Shown: one piece after another, positions 4,198 to 39,316 of the stretch
Numbering within the stretch: the stretch's first letter is position 1
How the letters are laid out: every line of letters begins with the position of its first letter
DNA from: a virus
Lineage: Duplodnaviria; Heunggongvirae; Uroviricota; Caudoviricetes
DNA length: 40,565 bases
Virus record (IMG/VR): IMGVR_UViG_2687453529_000006
Direction: 5' to 3' (one strand)
Position numbers and translations under genes: made by a program
Notes under the pieces: model-generated
The model's database searches: none
What the model saw: the letters and a program-made list of their open reading frames with translations, nothing else
What the model was told of the DNA's origin: nothing

Positions 4198-4479
4198 TCA
4201 CATCCAGCCACGAAGTTGATGCTCAACAACAATCGCGTATTTATCGAATATTGACGATTTTTTTGCATCATTAATGATGCGCACGTTTACAAAATATCCG
4301 TCTTCCTTAACACATACCGGTTCGCCATCTTCAGTCAGTTCTCCGCTTTCTTTGTACACGTTACCTATCACGTCAATAAGAATATCATCCTGCATCGACT
4401 CGTCATCATAATAGCCAATACTCTCCATAAAGGCCGAAAAGTCGGCCCTGTCTGCAAATTTGAGTGTTAAATCTTTCAT
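4198..4479 (-). CDS. Hypothetical protein between the two fibre genes
   Basis: 93-aa acidic ORF; 4-nt overlap with stf stop region; no family recognised (does not resemble lambda Tfa). Confidence 0.45.
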   Translation of the reverse strand: MKDLTLKFADRADFSAFMESIGYYDDESMQDDILIDVIGNVYKESGELTEDGEPVCVKEDGYFVNVRIINDAKKSSIFDKYAIVVEHQLRGWM

Positions 4480-6824
4480 TTAATACTCTCCCCCATTTGC
4501 GCATCAGTTAATTCTTTATGCCAGATACGCAGATTACGGATATGACCAAAAAGATGATACTCCCCATTAGTGCCCTGCCCTCCAATTCGCAATACTGCCC
4601 GTGGAACAATTGAAGTCCATGTTGTTTTTGCCGCAACAGATAATTCACCATTACATACGGCCTGAACATCTCCATCAGCGCCACAACGTAAGCCTGAAAT
4701 GATTTTCCTCTGGGTTGTTGCCACATATTTATTACACCCTCCCATAGAAATAAAAGGAGAACCGGCATCAGAGAAATTATTACCACGGAATCCATGCGTG
4801 AACAGACCATTTTCCTGATAATCTTTAACATTAAAGATTAATGGTGATTTGCTGGGAGGGATATCCCAGTTTTTATTAACTTCAACAAGAGCACTGAATG
4901 GTAATCGGTGAATATTGTTTCTTACAGGTATTGTCACCATGTCGCTGGAGCGAGTGCCAGGAGCCCCTTCAGTAATGATAAATGACGTCCTGTACGACCC
5001 AATCTCCGCCTGAGGCATCGCAATATCTAACGTAGAGCCATTGGGGATAATACTGATTCCAGGCATCGCCAGGATTTCAAATCTTGAGCTGATTATCATT
5101 TCCTCATCTGCAAAAAGAGTGGCGGTAAACAACCACCATTCACCGACTCTTTCTGCCGTCACCGTCACATTATTTCCATGAACAACATTTCCCGTAACAG
5201 GATCCAGAGCTGCATCTGAATGAAAAACAAACGCACCATTATCAGACATTTTTCCGAACCTTGCACGACACCGGGAATTATCACTTTTCGTCAGACACGA
5301 TATCGTCGTATAAGAACCTGCCGGGCAGGTGTAAGCATCATTCGTGTTTACAGCAATTGCCTGATATCCTTGTGCTGTCGGATTTTCATTAATAACAGTT
5401 ATCCTTCCATAGTTAAACCCATTATCACTGTCGAACGACTCAACAGACACACTACCCGTGTTATTCCATGCTTCTGGTGTATTTGAATTTCTGAAATAGT
5501 TTGTTCTCTGTCCTTCAATCAGCAAACCTTCTCGTTCAAATCGCGGTTCGTCAACTTCAGCAACGGTTAATACACCTGATTTATTAATGTATGTTGCACC
5601 TGATGCGCGTTTGAAGCTAACAACCTTATCGGATGGCATTTTAATAACATCATCACCTACAGTTATTTGCTTATAACCAGGCGAAAAGCCAGCAAGCATA
5701 TCCAGTGAATCGTTAAACGGTATCCACACATCAGGCAGTGGCTGTAAGACATATTTATACGGCTCTGCTGCCTGGCTTGCATACTCTCTCGCTGCGTCTT
5801 CACTTGCTTTTGCAGCCATCTGGCTTGCAGCGGATGCTTTTGCCGAGTTAGTCGCCGCAGTCTCGCTCGCCTTTGCGTTGGTTTCACTGGTTTTTGCAGC
5901 TTTTTGACTGTTGGCTGATGCAGTGGCAGAAGAAGCCGCCGCACTTGCAGAACCAGCTGCAGCACTCTCGCTTTGGGCCGCCGCATCCTGACTGTTTTTC
6001 GCCGCAGTTTCGCTGGCTTTGGCATTCGTTTCGCTGGTCTTCGCTGCCGTCTGGCTGGACTTTGCGTTAGTTTCACTCGTCTTCGCTGCTTTCTGACTGT
6101 TAGCCGCAGCAGTTGCTGATCCAGCTGCTGAAGTCGCAGAATCGGCTGCCGCGCTCTCGCTTTCGGCTGCTGCAACCTGGCTGTTTTTTGCCGCAGTTTC
6201 ACTGGCTTTAGCATTCGTTTCGCTGGTTATCGCTGCCGTCTGGCTGGACTTTGCGTTGGTTTCGCTCGTCTTTGCGGCTGTCTCGCTATTTTTCGCGTTG
6301 GTTTCTGATTTTTTGGCTGCTGTCGCGGAGTTTGCCGATGCAGTCTTTGAGGTCGCTGCCGCCTGTGCACTATTAGCTGCATTCGTTTCTGACGTTTTCG
6401 CCGCGTTCTTCGATGATGCCGCTGCAGTTTCGGATTTCTTTGCCGCCGCTGCGCTCTGAGAGGCGGCTTCGGCGTTGCGTGCCGCTTCTTCCACCATTGC
6501 CTCAAAACGGCGCAATGCCTCCGGCATGACATCATCTTCCGTCATGGCACCGAGAAAATCATTCAGCGTACCTGGTCTGGAGCCTTCATAGACGGTAATG
6601 GTCCCGGCATGTGAAGGCGGAAAACCTTCAACCAGCAGGGTGACGCTGTACTGGCCATACTCAACATCCATGCTGTAACGCCCGGCTTCATCAGGATTTT
6701 CAGAGGCCACCGTGTTCACCAGTACCGTGGTGCTGTTACGCTTTGCCTTCAGTTGAATAGTGCAGTTCTGTATTGGTTTTCCCGCACCATCTTTCAGCAC
6801 ACCTGAGATTTTTACTGCTGCCAT
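4476..6824 (-). CDS. stf: Side tail fibre protein (lambda Stf-like N-terminus, repeat-rich shaft, divergent C-terminal domain)
   Basis: N-terminus from Met3 (MAAVKISGVLKDGAGKPIQNCTIQLKAKRNSTTV...) matches lambda Stf; track ORF begins at an upstream GTG; GGAG RBS before the ATG at 6824. Confidence 0.85.
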   Translation of the reverse strand: MAAVKISGVLKDGAGKPIQNCTIQLKAKRNSTTVLVNTVASENPDEAGRYSMDVEYGQYSVTLLVEGFPPSHAGTITVYEGSRPGTLNDFLGAMTEDDVMPEALRRFEAMVEEAARNAEAASQSAAAAKKSETAAASSKNAAKTSETNAANSAQAAATSKTASANSATAAKKSETNAKNSETAAKTSETNAKSSQTAAITSETNAKASETAAKNSQVAAAESESAAADSATSAAGSATAAANSQKAAKTSETNAKSSQTAAKTSETNAKASETAAKNSQDAAAQSESAAAGSASAAASSATASANSQKAAKTSETNAKASETAATNSAKASAASQMAAKASEDAAREYASQAAEPYKYVLQPLPDVWIPFNDSLDMLAGFSPGYKQITVGDDVIKMPSDKVVSFKRASGATYINKSGVLTVAEVDEPRFEREGLLIEGQRTNYFRNSNTPEAWNNTGSVSVESFDSDNGFNYGRITVINENPTAQGYQAIAVNTNDAYTCPAGSYTTISCLTKSDNSRCRARFGKMSDNGAFVFHSDAALDPVTGNVVHGNNVTVTAERVGEWWLFTATLFADEEMIISSRFEILAMPGISIIPNGSTLDIAMPQAEIGSYRTSFIITEGAPGTRSSDMVTIPVRNNIHRLPFSALVEVNKNWDIPPSKSPLIFNVKDYQENGLFTHGFRGNNFSDAGSPFISMGGCNKYVATTQRKIISGLRCGADGDVQAVCNGELSVAAKTTWTSIVPRAVLRIGGQGTNGEYHLFGHIRNLRIWHKELTDAQMGESIK
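5830..6440. repeat. Imperfect tandem DNA repeats inside stf encoding (S/T)ETNAK(A/S)S-type repeats
   Basis: Repeated units visible at about 21-nt and about 190-nt periodicity (e.g. gccgcagtttcgctggctttggcattcgtttcgctgg... recurs). Confidence 0.7.
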
Positions 6825-34544: not shown

Positions 34545-35110
34545 GCGTTAGTTTCTCCACAACCAGAAGCAATCGACGCCACGACGCCCGGAGCTGCACA
34601 CTCGCGGGCGTCATTACTTTCTGAAATGCAAAAGATTTTGTAGACCAGTGCTGCATGCTCCTGCAGCTTCGAAATTGACAGGTACAGTTCGTCGTTAATT
34701 GCTGCCTGCTCGTGTGGTTCCACCACCCCGTCTTCAATTGCTGAACGAATCTGTTTTGAATAACTGCCGATCTGTTCAATGACCTCCAGCAGGCGTTGGT
34801 TGATATCGGCGTTCTCTACTTCCTCAATTTCAGGAAGCGATACAAACACCCCACCAGCAGACTGTGCGACTGCATCCGCAATGTGGTGAGTGCCAGCAGC
34901 ACGCTGTAAAACCATTGCCCATCCCAGCGGGAAAATCTGATCGCCATCGGCACGAAGGCGGTTAAATAATGCGTTCTCTGTTACATCCAGCCAGTCAGCA
35001 GCTTCAGCGTAACCCCCCGGCAATGCCGCGATAGTTTTTCTGACAGCTTTCACGTACCACTCAGGCTGTTTTTCTACTTTCCAGTGATGCTTACCCACGG
35101 TTAGCCTCAT
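34541..35110 (-). CDS. CII-like regulatory protein (YdaT/CP76-like)
   Basis: 189 aa immediately downstream of the cro-like gene; family assignment from memory. Confidence 0.5.
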
Positions 35111-35141
35111 CGTTCTGTGGTTAAAAATTGAAGGTGTTCTG

Positions 35142-35342
35142 TTAATCTTTCGGATAGATATCCGGTCTTAAGTCAGATTTCGTAATTGCACCTGACGTGC
35201 ATTGCTCAATTTTTTTAGCCAGCACAAAACTGGCTTTTTTATAACCATTGAAAACCAGCCGTAAGTAGCCTGGTGTTGAGCCAACTTTTCCGGCCAACTC
35301 GCCCTGCTGTTCTTTGGTTAAAGAGTCCCAATACGCTTTCAT
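35142..35342 (-). CDS. Cro-like HTH regulator (YdaS-like)
   Basis: 66 aa from Met9 with GGAGG RBS; ...GKVGSTPGYLRLVFNGYKKAS... HTH-like; divergent from cI. Confidence 0.7.
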   Translation of the reverse strand: MKAYWDSLTKEQQGELAGKVGSTPGYLRLVFNGYKKASFVLAKKIEQCTSGAITKSDLRPDIYPKD

Positions 35343-35343
35343 A

Positions 35344-35417
35344 CAATATGTACCTCCGATGTACATATTACATGATTAAAATGAACCTTCAAGATACTTG
35401 TACCTTAACGGTACAAG
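35344..35417. promoter_or_regulatory. Immunity-region operators and divergent promoters
   Basis: Perfect palindromes AATATGTAC-ctccgat-GTACATATT and CTTGTACC-ttaac-GGTACAAG; minus-strand TTGAAG-16-TAATAT promoter for cro; weak -35/-10 for cI. Confidence 0.6.
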
Positions 35418-35432
35418 GGTTTTAATTTCATT

Positions 35433-36107
35433 ATGAAAACAGTCCATGACATCCGGCGGTCTAACGCCAGAAAACTGAGAGATGGTGTTGGCGGGAATTC
35501 TTCCTTTGCCACCATGATTGATCGCGAGCCGACCCAGACCAGCAGGTTTATGGGAGATGGTGCAACTAAAAATATCGGTGACAGCATGGCACGGCACATC
35601 GAAAAATGTTTCGACCTGCCTGTCGGATGGCTTGATCAAGAACACCAGACAACGAACATCACAAAAAAACCTGATGTTTCAATCACTAACAAACAAATAA
35701 CGTTAGTCCCTGTCATATCATGGGTACAGGCCGGAGCATGGAAAGAAGTTGGTTATTCTGAGGTTGATTTGAGCACAGCAGAAACTTATCCCTGCCCTGT
35801 ACCCTGTGGTGAAATGACTTATATCTTGCGGGTGATTGGTGATTCAATGATTGATGAGTACCGCCCAGGAGACATGATTTTTGTTGATCCTGAAGTCCCT
35901 GCCTGCCACGGTGACGACGTTATTGCATTGATGCACGATACAGGCGAAACCACCTTCAAGCGGTTGATAGAAGATGGAACACAGCGTTACCTCAAAGCAT
36001 TAAACCCAAACTGGCCTGAACCTTACATTAAGATCAACGGTAATTGCTCTATAATTGGTACAGTGATTTTCTCGGGAAAACCAAGAAGATACAAAATAAA
36101 GACCTAA
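35433..36107 (+). CDS. cI: CI-like repressor (HTH plus S24 LexA-like peptidase domain)
   Basis: 224 aa; C-terminal ...LRVIGDSMIDEYRPGDMIFVDPE... with Ser and Lys of S24 autocleavage domain. Confidence 0.9.
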   Translation: MKTVHDIRRSNARKLRDGVGGNSSFATMIDREPTQTSRFMGDGATKNIGDSMARHIEKCFDLPVGWLDQEHQTTNITKKPDVSITNKQITLVPVISWVQAGAWKEVGYSEVDLSTAETYPCPVPCGEMTYILRVIGDSMIDEYRPGDMIFVDPEVPACHGDDVIALMHDTGETTFKRLIEDGTQRYLKALNPNWPEPYIKINGNCSIIGTVIFSGKPRRYKIKT

Positions 36108-36117
36108 TCAATATTTA

Positions 36118-36142
36118 TGAACCTGCTTCGGCAGGTTTTTTT
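36118..36142 (+). terminator. Intrinsic terminator after cI
   Basis: cctgc-ttcg-gcagg followed by TTTTTTT. Confidence 0.65.
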
Positions 36143-36146
36143 ATAC

Positions 36147-36180
36147 TTGACAATGTACCTTTGGGATACATAATGTATCC
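36147..36180 (+). promoter_or_regulatory. Sigma-70 promoter with overlapping 17-bp palindromic operator
   Basis: TTGACA, 16-nt spacer, CATAAT; perfect palindrome GGATACAT-A-ATGTATCC covers the -10. Confidence 0.55.
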
Positions 36181-36569
36181 AAAAGAAACATGCAACAGGC
36201 AAGATTCAAACAAAGTTTGGTTGTAACACGGCGTATGGCACATGCGTCGTTAGCGGTCTGGAGACGTTAAAGGGGACAATCCACTCCTTGCTCGGGCAAA
36301 CAAACCAGGTAGCCGGAATGTGCAAGTCAATGATGATGCTGATAAGACGCCTAACCAGCGTGGCGATTCGGTTTGACGCCTGGGAAGAGACCAGGGTGCA
36401 ACGATAAGAGCATTTATGGAGCCGAGACAAAGTGTGGCGCCGAACTGGCTAAGTGCTCTCAGCGTTGTGGTAATCCGCGAAATGGCGCGGCGGTAAGTAT
36501 GGCGGGGTTACTCTTTCCCCGTTGAGGACACCGGATTGTCAGGTTGACCATACGCCTGAGTGACAACCC

Positions 36570-36638
36570 CACCACAACAGCCACTGCTTTGGCGGTACCA
36601 GTTTGTACACTTGCTTCCGGCTGGTACCGCTCTTTTTA
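36570..36638 (+). ncRNA. Candidate DicF-like small RNA / terminator at the end of a long structured leader
   Basis: ctttGGCGGTACCAGTTTgtac...CTGGTACCGCtcTTTTT: stable hairpin with U-run; the 5' arm resembles the DicF 5' region as I recall it. Confidence 0.4.
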
Positions 36639-36774
36639 CAAAACAGAGAAGAGCATCACCGGACGACGGGCTCATAACCCAATCCATCCGGGCAGCAGCC
36701 ACTGCAGGTGTTCTTCTCTGTTTTGTGGAGAAACTAACCGACCTTGCAGGGTCGATATGATGAGGAGCAGCAAA

Positions 36775-37137
36775 ATGGCTAGCGAACGCAGTACTGATGT
36801 GCAGGCATTTATCGGGGAGCTGGACGGCGGCGTATTTGAAACCAAAATCGGCGCAGTTCTCAGTGAAGTCGCTTCCGGTGTGATGAACACGAAAACCAAA
36901 GGTAAGGTCTCGCTCAACCTGGAAATCGAACCGTTTGATGAGAACCGTGTGAAAATCAAACACAAACTCTCATATGTTCGCCCAACTAACCGCGGGAAAA
37001 TTTCCGAAGAAGACACCACCGAAACGCCGATGTATGTCAATCGCGGTGGTCGCCTGACTGTTCTGCAGGAAGACCAGGGACAATTACTGACTCTTGCCGG
37101 TGAACCTGACGGAAAACTCCGCGCAGCAGGTCATTAA
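36775..37137 (+). CDS. YfdP-like prophage protein
   Basis: 120 aa from MASERSTDVQAFIGELDGGVF...; GAGGAG RBS; family name from memory. Confidence 0.6.
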   Translation: MASERSTDVQAFIGELDGGVFETKIGAVLSEVASGVMNTKTKGKVSLNLEIEPFDENRVKIKHKLSYVRPTNRGKISEEDTTETPMYVNRGGRLTVLQEDQGQLLTLAGEPDGKLRAAGH

Positions 37138-37202
37138 TATCGTTTTTAATAAACTGATTATTTCTCTCATCACTGAATATTTTTATATAGTGAGGACTTA
37201 TT

Positions 37203-38027
37203 ATGTCTCAGAACTTAGACGCAACCGCAATTAATCAAATCCATGCCCTTATTTCTGCTCAGGGTGTTAATGAAATTATCAGTAAGATTGGTGCCGATGC
37301 TGTGGCATTGCCTGAGAATTTCCGCATTCATGATCTGGAAAAATTTAATTTAAATCGCTTCCGTTTCCGTGGTGCGCTTTCCACTGCCAGCATCGATGAC
37401 TTTACCCGTTATTCTAAAGATCTTGCAGATGAAGGCACCCGCTGCTTTATCGATGCCGATAATATGCGTGCCGTCAGTGTGCTTAACCTAGGTACTATTG
37501 ATGAACCAGGTCACGCAGATAACACCGCCACTCTCAAACTGAAAAAGACAGCACCGTTCTCTGCTCTGTTGTCTGTTAACGGCGAGCGTAACTCCCAGAA
37601 GTCACTGGCAGAATGGATTGAAGACTGGGCCGACTACCTTGTGGGCTTTGATGCTAATGGTGACGCTATTCAGGCAACAAAAGCGGCTGCGGCTGTCCGT
37701 AAAATCACGATTGAAGCAAACCAGGCCGCTGATTTTGAAGATAATGACTTCAGCGGCAAACGCTCCCTGATGGAGTCTGTCGAAGCGAAGACCAAAGACA
37801 TTATGCCAGTGGCATTTGAATTTAAATGCGTTCCGTTTGAAGGCCTGAAAGAACGTCCGTTTAAATTACGCCTCAGCATTATCACTGGCGATCGTCCTGT
37901 ACTGGTTCTGCGCATTATTCAGCTGGAAGCGGTGCAGGAAGAAATGGCTAACGAATTTCGTGATCTGCTTGTTGAGAAATTCAAAGACAGCAAAGTAGAA
38001 ACCTTTATTGGTACTTTCACCGCCTGA
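37203..38027 (+). CDS. YfdQ-like prophage protein (DUF2303-like)
   Basis: 274 aa; resembles E. coli CPS-53 YfdQ as remembered; function unknown. Confidence 0.7.
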
Positions 38028-38148: not shown

Positions 38149-38181
38149 TTGCAAAATAATTGCATTGCGTATATATACGCA
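38149..38181 (+). promoter_or_regulatory. Promoter with 16-bp perfect palindrome upstream of the AT-rich membrane-protein gene
   Basis: TTGCAA, 17-nt spacer, TATATA; palindrome TGCGTATATATACGCA spans the -10. Confidence 0.5.
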
Positions 38182-38203
38182 CATGTGTTGTATTACAGCG
38201 ATA

Positions 38204-38998
38204 ATGGTAAAGCAAATGATTAACTCTGAAGCAATTGAGCAACTAATGTGGCTATGGTCCTTATTTGACATTAAATTCTTATCTATTCTTGCCGCTGCCT
38301 TCACTATATATTTTGGCGTGCAAAAAATATCAAAAAAGGTGACAGTGTCGTATTCGACAGATGTAAGTAGAATATATGACATGCATATATCAACCATAAT
38401 CCTGAATAATAAAAGAGATAATGCAATTGCTATATCTTCAATCAATATGGAGGTTGAAGGTAAAGGGATACTACAAGTTATTAAATTTGACTCCCCTCTT
38501 CTTTTAAAGAACTATGATTCTTTAAAAGTTGAACCACCAAAATTTAGCAGCCTTTATAATAATGATGGCGTAGTTAAGTTAGATATTTCTGATAAGTTTC
38601 ATTTTTATATAATCACGACATCTGGAGATGAAATTAAATGTATTTCTGAAAATAAATATGTGGCACCAAACATGGAAAACAAAATAGCTACAGACATAAG
38701 AAAATTTAATGGCATTGTCTTAACAAACAGAATGTCTTATATTTTTTTCTATGCAAATGACAACGGAGAGAAATACTGCATAATAGATGTTTCATTGTTC
38801 ATAAATGGTGACAACCCATTTCATTTTAATTTTTTAAAAGAAGATGAATTAAGAGATTTTTCTAGCATCCTTATTGGTTACGGATATCACCAACGGTTTA
38901 AAAGTTATGCATTGTTTAAAATAGACAACCATCTTGCTCCTTCTTTGGTTTTAAATAAGTCAATGATAGAAAATAATATTATTGAAATGAATAAGTAA
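38204..38998 (+). CDS. Unrecognised low-GC membrane-anchored protein (about 265 aa)
   Basis: Long ORF in a markedly AT-rich block; one N-terminal hydrophobic helix (…FLSILAAAFTIYFGV…); start codon uncertain (track ORF begins at 38165 with TTG). Confidence 0.6.
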   Translation: MVKQMINSEAIEQLMWLWSLFDIKFLSILAAAFTIYFGVQKISKKVTVSYSTDVSRIYDMHISTIILNNKRDNAIAISSINMEVEGKGILQVIKFDSPLLLKNYDSLKVEPPKFSSLYNNDGVVKLDISDKFHFYIITTSGDEIKCISENKYVAPNMENKIATDIRKFNGIVLTNRMSYIFFYANDNGEKYCIIDVSLFINGDNPFHFNFLKEDELRDFSSILIGYGYHQRFKSYALFKIDNHLAPSLVLNKSMIENNIIEMNK

Positions 38999-39034: not shown

Positions 39035-39316
39035 ATGAATACCTTGTTTTTACTGATGGCTGAATTCAATACCCCAAACATTGAACTCTCAGCAGTTAGT
39101 CAAAAATACTTTGGTATGAGTCCAGCCACAGCAGAAGCAAAAGCAAACGCTTGTAAGTTGCCCGTTCCAACATATCGCATCGGCACATCACAAAAAGCAA
39201 AACGTTGCATCAATATTCAGGATCTTGCGGAATATATAGACAAAAGACGAGAAGAAGGACGTATCGAGTGGGAACAGGTCAGAACAGGCAAACAGAAGGG
39301 CAAAGAACATCACTAA
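39035..39316 (+). CDS. PrtN-like small DNA-binding regulator (pyocin-activator/excisionase-like)
   Basis: 93 aa; MNTLFLLMAEF...KLPVPTYRIG... resembles PrtN family as remembered. Confidence 0.7.
   Translation: MNTLFLLMAEFNTPNIELSAVSQKYFGMSPATAEAKANACKLPVPTYRIGTSQKAKRCINIQDLAEYIDKRREEGRIEWEQVRTGKQKGKEHH

Follow-up and report, generated by a model that had tools for sequence, protein, structure and literature searches.

What lies between the repressor gene and the yfdP/yfdQ-like genes of a lambdoid prophage, and does it make an RNA of its own? The question is raised by positions 36118 to 36780 of IMG/VR virus record IMGVR_UViG_2687453529_000006, a Caudoviricetes sequence of 40,565 nt that is called the window below. 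A sequence-only reading had proposed an operator-gated promoter directly after cI and a roughly 450-nt structured leader ending in a DicF-like hairpin, serving either as a processed small RNA (sRNA) or as an attenuator of the downstream genes. Our analysis indicates that the region is probably the control region of an early-left (PL-type) promoter together with the non-coding leader of a lambdoid E. coli prophage, giving an RNA of ~174 nt and attenuating yfdP/yfdQ. The promoter, operators, terminators, homology, conserved structure and lack of a coding signal were established by sequence analysis and comparison. The RNA is a real, conserved, structured element of a partly known family, and the modular cassette of which it may be one case is the part worth pursuing.

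The cI-like repressor gene (35433-36107, plus strand) encodes 224 amino acids with a Peptidase_S24 domain (Pfam, E = 1.5e-26); it is ymfK-like, is labelled “LexA family protein” in RefSeq, and faces a cro-like and a ydaT-like gene on the minus strand (open reading frame [ORF] list, Pfam). The features that follow are on the plus strand unless stated otherwise. An intrinsic terminator of the cI transcript (36119-36145; hairpin at 36119-36138, then a T run) is followed directly by the near-consensus promoter that the sequence-only reading had described: TTGACA (36147-36152), a 16-nt spacer and CATAAT (36169-36174), with 11 of 12 positions at consensus. This is the top promoter-like site within the 2.3 kb scanned (35000-37300), and the same scan found no promoter-like site inside the leader. 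In phage Ayreon, which is 97% identical here, the cI terminator and a PL-type promoter have been annotated independently.

Operator gating, also proposed from sequence, is supported by a scan of the whole window for the 17-bp motif TGTAYC-N5-GRTACA with one mismatch allowed, which gave four copies (0.14 expected), all within the immunity region. Two form the OR region between cro (minus strand) and cI (35349-35365 and 35399-35415, found by motif scan and repeat search), and two, OL1 (36154-36170) and OL2 (36174-36190), cover the promoter spacer, the -10 hexamer and the start site. Because the motif occurs only in the cI-cro interval and on this promoter, the latter is the PL/OL equivalent of a lambdoid prophage and thus an ordinary feature. 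The perfect 17-bp palindrome noted around the -10 hexamer (GGATACATAATGTATCC, 36164-36180) is present, and is best read from the sequence as the junction of the inner half-sites of tandem OL1 and OL2. In lambda, PL likewise follows cI in the same orientation and is directed away from the gene. The same PL-like geometry is seen at dicBp of the Qin prophage, where dicA and the promoter are followed by ydfABC, dicF and dicB (PMC10448788). In a lysogen, the LexA-family cI-like repressor would bind OL1 and OL2 over the spacer, -10 hexamer and start site, and the leader would be induced together with the prophage.

From the expected start at ~36181 to the yfdP ATG (36775) the leader measures ~594 nt, of which ~455 nt lie before the terminator end, close to the length first estimated, and covariation supports two domains in it. 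At least 80% of the region is carried by 890 E. coli genomes and 20 phage records. On derepression, polymerase would transcribe a structured module A, a module B with an acceptor-like closing stem (P0), and a DicF-type Rho-independent terminator. The last of these, correctly predicted as a strong hairpin and homologous to the 3' half of DicF, occupies 36591-36637 (13-bp stem 36591-36603/36619-36631, loop of 15 nt, C and five U after the stem; -22 kcal/mol, z = -2.8), its last stem pair being G-U (CCGCU); with a loop this long it escaped the simple terminator scan. Terminators of this family (GGCGG-variable loop-CCGCC-U5) are far more diverse than the Rfam DicF seed. Most transcripts would stop at ~36636, giving a primary RNA of ~455 nt.

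What may become of this transcript is suggested by sRNA-17 of E. coli K1 RS218, a 193-nt RNA from an mEp460-like prophage that was detected by rapid amplification of cDNA ends (RACE) and Northern blot (PMC7719688). The sRNA-17 primers and supplementary alignment match window positions 36453-36471 and 36566-36636 exactly. The two loci are identical in the spacer before the slot that holds module B, both P0 strands, the terminator hairpin and the downstream yfdP context, with module A upstream in both. The 5' end of sRNA-17, where the full-length primer starts (CGTTGTGG...), corresponds to window 36463, and its 3' end (...GGTACCGCTCTTTT) corresponds to 36636. With respect to the window's plus strand, the Northern probe and the primers for 5' RACE are antisense, which means that sRNA-17 is transcribed in the PL direction and has its 3' end at this terminator. 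Its quantitative reverse transcription-PCR amplicon begins with the 5' end of module A and so places module A and the slot RNA on one and the same transcript. The interior of the slot differs: sRNA-17 has an unrelated 135-nt body (B', cargo class c2) where the window has a 115-nt “long DicF” body, and the region of the sRNA-17 Northern probe, which lies in B', has no similarity to the window's module B. Because the RS218 body is 20 nt longer and yields ~193 nt, an RNA of ~174 nt (36463-36636) is predicted here. By homology, an endonucleolytic cut at the base of P0 would release this stable RNA with its 5' end at C36463, making it the counterpart of both the 193-nt sRNA-17 and the 190-nt form of DicF. 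A processed 5' end for sRNA-17 is more likely than one from its own ArcA-regulated promoter, given the co-transcription of module A and slot RNA and the lack of a promoter-like site in the leader.

Several points weigh against this reading. The transcript evidence stems from homologues rather than from this exact variant, and the 5' end is placed by a homologue with a different slot body. The authors of the sRNA-17 study read the module A region as an ArcA-regulated promoter, not as a transcribed leader (PMC7719688), and noted neither the DicF relationship nor the PL context. Module B alone has a weak fold z-score (-1.3). The Rfam DicF model, RF00039, has no match at its gathering score (48 bits) in the whole window and none even at E <= 10 in 35900-37000. 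Finally, the RS218 deletion, judged from its primer design, kept the terminator and inserted a cassette.

The last point bears on attenuation. A fraction of transcripts reading through the terminator would carry yfdP/yfdQ, as partial read-through has been shown for homologues, and the terminator would thereby double as an early-left attenuator. Replacement of sRNA-17 raised yfdP transcript 2^6.6 (~95-fold) and also raised yfdR, and the mutant showed trans phenotypes (PMC7719688). By analogy, the rise in yfdP fits a cis attenuator; because the construct retains the terminator and adds a cassette, the rise may be partly a cassette effect. The leader might even be purely cis-acting, attenuating potentially toxic early-left genes and providing processing sites while the RNA has no trans function. 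The terminator's position directly upstream of yfdP, the derepression of yfdP in the sRNA-17 mutant and the absence of both K-12 DicF seeds from the window agree with this. Nevertheless, the loops of module B do not vary even between distant phages, both modules are kept where no yfdP exists (P1, epsilon15-like phages and Qin), and the sRNA-17 mutant did show trans phenotypes, so that we regard a cis-only leader as possible but somewhat doubtful. The proposal that the region yields a processed sRNA or an attenuator is, by analogy, in line with the experiments on sRNA-17 and K-12 DicF.

Leader blocks with differing distributions were separated by a sensitive search of phage genomes, and the first of them, module A (36216-36415), is a ~200-nt RNA whose structure is conserved and in which four helices covary. 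Set against 13 aligned sequences, a five-helix model has 27 pairs, 98% paired, with 9 pairs (31 cells) changed on both sides; none of 500 shuffles reaches the observed value, and controls in which the partner was slid by 1 to 3 columns are only 29 to 39% paired. The helix GCACAU/AUGUGC is invariant, and in the model it could form a pseudoknot with the first hairpin. No Rfam family matches module A in the window or in five related loci, even at permissive thresholds. Module A occurs in P1 and P7-like phages (75 to 88% identity), right after tRNA-Ile and before ban, in the epsilon15-like Uetakeviruses (phiV10, O157 typing phage 9, SPN1S, 65FD and BUCT554), in a Klebsiella phage and in lambdoid phage mEp390. 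Its core is present in species representatives of Kosakonia, Citrobacter, Klebsiella, Enterobacter, Kluyvera, Phytobacter, Buttiauxella, Pseudescherichia and Erwinia, and in the loci read outside P1 a near-consensus promoter lies 60 to 110 nt upstream. The ArcA box of the sRNA-17 study (PMC7719688), a GTTA...GTTA direct repeat (GTTAGCGGTCTGGAGACGTTAA, 36241-36268), is part of the core of module A that is conserved and base-paired.

Between module A and the slot lie a variable linker and a conserved spacer (36416-36463), the spacer motif GUGCUCUCAGCGUU spanning 36453-36466. This motif is complementary to AGAGCAU both at 36407-36413, closing the variable linker, and at 36650-36656, past the terminator; in Qin-type loci the equivalent positions read GUGCGCU and AGCGCAC, which amounts to a G:C to U:A swap between the types. 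The spacer (UGCUCU...) also presumably resembles boxA.

In lambda and HK022, too, an untranslated RNA element (the nutL-containing PL/OL leader and putL, respectively) precedes the early-left genes. The window shares with these phages a repressor-gated promoter 3' of cI on the same strand and an untranslated element before the early-left genes; unlike them, it has neither an N gene nor boxB, shows no sequence similarity to them, and has a much longer leader, from which the strong terminator at its end gives a discrete RNA. Module A and/or the boxA-like spacer could accordingly be a signal for processive antitermination, in the manner of HK022 put or of the rrn and nut boxA, by which polymerase that started at PL would pass the terminator and escape Rho, in a phage without an N gene in this operon. 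In its favor, no N-like gene follows PL (ORF list, Pfam, PHROG), module A always lies 3' of a strong promoter and 5' of terminators, and the spacer presumably resembles boxA. We consider it unlikely, however: a put- or nut-like pair would predict a second copy in the rightward operon, where no leader element recurs except one identical 16-mer (UUGUGGAGAAACUAAC), module A of P1 lies deep inside an operon, after tRNA-Ile, and there is no sequence similarity to any Rfam family.

The resemblance to DicF noted from sequence holds for the locus but not for the parts through which DicF acts. Alignment to dicF and an Rfam search had been suggested as checks and gave opposite answers. Window positions 36464-36632 align with the region that makes the 190-nt “long DicF” of K-12 Qin (pairwise alignment, with which a 15-sequence alignment agrees), the ~105 nt upstream of mature DicF are >90% identical between the two, and the core TTTGGCGGTA(C/T)CAGTTT (as RNA, UUUGGCGGUA(C/U)CAGUUU) is kept at 17 of 18 nt. 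A GGCGG...CCGC hairpin and a run of five U end both RNAs, and both loci lie 3' of a prophage repressor gene, on the same strand, behind a repressor-controlled promoter. P0 covaries between the window (U-A) and K-12 (C-G), and the approximate 5' end of the 190-nt DicF falls a few nucleotides upstream of this same closing stem. In K-12, the 190-nt species is an RNase III product and the 53-nt species an RNase E product (PMC10448788); RNase E makes the DicF 5' end, and a 72-nt form is made by RNase III (PMC5069750). Compared with K-12, the window has a 19-nt deletion that takes out the RNase E region along with the initial 12 nt of the 53-nt DicF, and the loop and 3' arm of its hairpin differ. 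The neighbors differ as well, with ydfABC upstream and dicB downstream in K-12 but module A upstream and yfdP/yfdQ downstream here. The Rfam check failed: RF00039 is silent on the window, whereas K-12 dicF, the positive control, scores 76.7 bits, and among five related loci the model matches only K-12 and, weakly, BUCT554.

A functional DicF orthologue, blocking cell division through the ftsZ ribosome-binding site, could be expected from the locus homology, the shared core and dicF's operon position. DicF pairs with xylR and pykA through its 5' end and with the ftsZ ribosome-binding site through its 3' region (PMC5069750). In the window the 5' seed (UUUCUGGUGACG) is lost within the 19-nt gap and the 3' region complementary to the ftsZ ribosome-binding site is replaced. 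In silico, the best duplex of the window hairpin with the ftsZ translation-initiation region (-31.5 kcal/mol) is just as strong as the average over 300 shuffled sequences (p = 0.47), cofolding brings the hairpin -6.8 kcal/mol versus -13.9 for K-12 DicF, and the ftsZ Shine-Dalgarno sequence, covered by K-12 DicF, is left unpaired by the window hairpin. Together with the silence of RF00039, these results make a true orthologue very unlikely. With its 5' seed deleted and its loop altered, the variant should not act on ftsZ, xylR and pykA as DicF does; the locus is DicF-related by sequence, and a DicF-like effect on cell division should not be assumed. On homology, context and terminator, the locus is best filed as a variant in the DicF/sRNA-17 group of prophage early-operon RNAs, although neither Rfam nor the two seeds place it there. 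In the dicF-dicB spacer of K-12 Qin (4433-4642 of the fetched locus) we also observed a sub-threshold match to STnc100 (34 bits; gathering score 47).

Module B (36464-36578), the 115-nt “long DicF” body, is a multi-hairpin domain closed by P0, in which GUUGUGGU (36464-36471) pairs with ACCACAAC (36571-36578). Among its homologues it has 31 pairs, 93% paired, with 8 compensatory pairs in, among others, P0 (U-A to C-G), P2 and P3, and 0 of 500 shuffles reach its covariation score. Like module A, it gave no Rfam match in the window or in the five related loci. Its invariant loops and the pyrimidine-rich P2 loop are leads for trans activity and not evidence of it. The same may be said of CACAACA at 36573-36579, in the 3' strand of P0, which equals the target consensus of the GcvB R1 seed (PMC4104026) and is paired in the predicted fold. 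GUUGUGG in the 5' strand resembles the GU-rich GcvB seed itself; a sponge role is possible from sequence.

Long-range complementarity within the leader was claimed as well. A match of exactly 9 bp does exist between GGCGUAUGG (36230-36238) and CCAUACGCC (36548-36556) and is contained in the minimum-energy fold, but the downstream partner had been misread (it reads ACCATACGCC, not GCCATACGCC), and evolution gives the pairing no support. By our own estimate, ~0.4 such 9-bp pairs are expected by chance in a 450-nt RNA. Each motif belongs to a loop of its own module, and each is found unchanged where the other is missing (~70 and ~100 occurrences among the fetched loci), and P1 has a mismatch without compensation; a helix joining modules A and B was therefore rejected, and the two loops may make a loop-loop contact.

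The position of module B is occupied by a tRNA in related phages. In Uetakeviruses, module A and a conserved spacer (GTGCTCTCAGCGTT) are followed by tRNA-Arg(UCU) and then by a DicF-type terminator (TTGGCGGTGATGG...CTATCACCGCCCTTTTT). The acceptor stem GUGGCAU of this tRNA starts exactly where P0 (GUUGUGGU) starts in the window: the flanks are identical up to GTTGTGG, and homology resumes directly after the acceptor 3' strand, so that the tRNA closing stem GUGGCAU/AUGCCAC corresponds to GUUGUGGU/ACCACAAC. Module B thus sits at the tRNA-Arg position with an acceptor-like closing stem. The window itself has no tRNA by ARAGORN and no match to RF00005; in related phages, the tRNA-Arg that fills the homologous slot is detected as such. 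Among 115 occurrences of module A in viral contigs, the slot holds module B in 33 and tRNA-Arg in 26, neither of them (mostly the B' body) in 30, and the spacer is absent in 26. Over all fetched loci, slot sequences fall into 17 clusters and at least 12 distinct cargo classes of 58 to 201 nt, including tRNA-Arg(tct), tRNA-Ile, the DicF-long body, the sRNA-17 body and other, unrelated RNAs; most classes are predicted to be closed by GUUGUGG/CCACAAC.

Spacer- and trailer-derived sRNAs of tRNA genes are known, e.g., 3'ETS-leuZ (3' external transcribed spacer), and RNase E cuts tRNA 3' trailers. In epsilon15-like phages, a tRNA-Arg unit has the DicF-type hairpin as its 3' trailer and terminator; the window differs in that its slot holds a non-tRNA structured domain instead. 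The leader could alternatively be a decaying, presently functionless relic of a phage tRNA array. The occupation of the slot by tRNA-Arg in related phages would agree with this, as would fragments resembling a tRNA T arm and acceptor 3' strand (GGTTCAATTCCAG...CCCA, GGGTTCGAATCCCTACGCA) that lie between module A and the spacer in SPN1S (locus L228, ~1330-1420), BUCT554 (L230, ~1340-1390) and locus L095, where the sequence suggests decayed tRNA arrays. However, compensatory changes maintain helices in both modules, identity is near perfect across hundreds of genomes, and a homologue is expressed and processed, which makes a mere relic very unlikely.

Coding capacity does not explain the region either, in agreement with the initial impression of ~590 nt without a convincing ORF. 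The leader ORFs have no Pfam match, and in 29 full-length homologues (64 variable positions) the substitutions in two of them are spread over the codon positions as 9/10/7 and 11/12/10, compared with 6/6/19 for yfdP, so that no conserved small ORF accounts for the sequence. Because of this and because module A homologues are separated by indels that are not multiples of three, the leader was treated as non-coding, with no credible ORF in its sequence. A small protein (plus-strand ORFs of 39 and 66 amino acids or minus-strand ORFs of 74 and 151, annotated as hypothetical proteins by gene callers in some phages, two of them matching PHROG families of unknown function) is hence scarcely credible; those families are explicable as gene calls on the same conserved DNA.

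The preferred reading, a PL-type control region with an attenuating leader and a processed RNA, leads to a broader proposal. We suggest, tentatively and as a possibility still short of likely, that the leader is one case of a modular non-coding RNA cassette that is widespread in temperate enterobacterial phages (lambdoid, P1-like and epsilon15-like). On this proposal the cassette would comprise (i) a strong promoter, (ii) module A, (iii) a slot with an acceptor-like stem and (iv) a DicF-type terminator with a rapidly diversifying loop, and the slot would take interchangeable cargo: tRNA-Arg(UCU), tRNA-Ile, the “long DicF” body, the sRNA-17 body and at least eight further unrelated structured RNAs.

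Phage P1 shows the parts in another arrangement. Its “dicF-like region” (NC_005856), right after the C1-controlled promoter Pban, is a module B homologue with compensatory changes (CGGGG/CCCCG to CUGGG/CCCAG and UUGUCA/UGACAA to UUGCCA/UGGCAA). P1 carries modules A and B 2.2 kb apart and in the opposite order, with tRNA genes between them, and compared with the window it lacks the P0 stem and has a different terminator. A sequence resembling the DicF 5' seed (ATTTTCTGGTGA; ~2695-2712 of the P1 locus) lies at the 3' end of P1 module A, 2.2 kb from the dicF-like region, and pieces of K-12 DicF are thus spread over different modules in P1.

The U tract of the terminator is where a further hairpin starts (36633-36731; 25-bp stem, -49.5 kcal/mol, z = -8.2), which can thus form only in read-through RNA. 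By analogy with the 72-nt DicF made by RNase III (PMC5069750) it is a candidate RNase III site, which would be cleaved in the read-through transcript. This hairpin block and yfdP are also found in SfV, SfII, SfIV and ST64B. A small hairpin (36739-36754, by folding) and the Shine-Dalgarno sequence GAGGAG (36762-36767) precede the yfdP-like gene (36775-37137), which has the coding periodicity given above and is followed by a yfdQ-like DUF2303 gene (37203-38027; Pfam/PHROG). The 16-mer UUGUGGAGAAACUAAC occurs at 36723-36738 on the plus strand, after the 25-bp hairpin, and identically at 34547-34562 on the minus strand (blast E = 0.006), where the ydaT-like gene of the rightward operon has its 3' end. 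Both early transcripts thus contain it, and a mosaic joint or a common site for ribosome binding or regulation could account for this. Between the DUF2303 gene and a PrtN-like gene (39035-39316) lies an AT-rich ORF of 277 amino acids (38165-38998; phrog_14996, function unknown, no Pfam match) that looks like a moron inserted in the early-left operon.

Other phage-borne sRNAs were considered as relatives. The anti-sRNAs AgvB and AsxR are located in the PR' moron region and hence are not this locus, and MavR is located in a ter island (the sequence comparison was incomplete). A full-text literature search with the hairpin and module A sequences returned no match. In the reachable literature, three aspects appear undescribed: that one slot takes either DicF-long or sRNA-17 as its cargo; that a tRNA occupies the same slot in related phages, older work (Faubladier & Bouche 1994, Lobocka 2004) aside; and that a module A absent from Rfam accompanies the DicF-long/sRNA-17 slot across three phage lineages.

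These findings link DicF, a regulator of cell division and metabolism and of virulence in enterohemorrhagic E. coli, with sRNA-17, reported to affect the blood survival of meningitis-causing E. coli (PMC7719688), as fillings of one repressor-controlled cassette. They call into question the published model of sRNA-17, for which a processed early-left product is likelier than transcription from its own ArcA-regulated promoter, and they advise caution, since ftsZ targeting cannot be assumed for the DicF-like hairpins of Stx2c, cdtI and many other prophages. If the cassette proposal is true, (i) DicF originated in a phage tRNA unit, as its 3' trailer, (ii) slot RNAs are matured by tRNA-processing enzymes and (iii) they are hypervariable effectors or decoys, e.g., against tRNA-targeting host defences or host sRNAs. 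Module A with its tRNA-sized slot and many unrelated cargoes would be, if functional, a new example of modular RNA evolution in phages.

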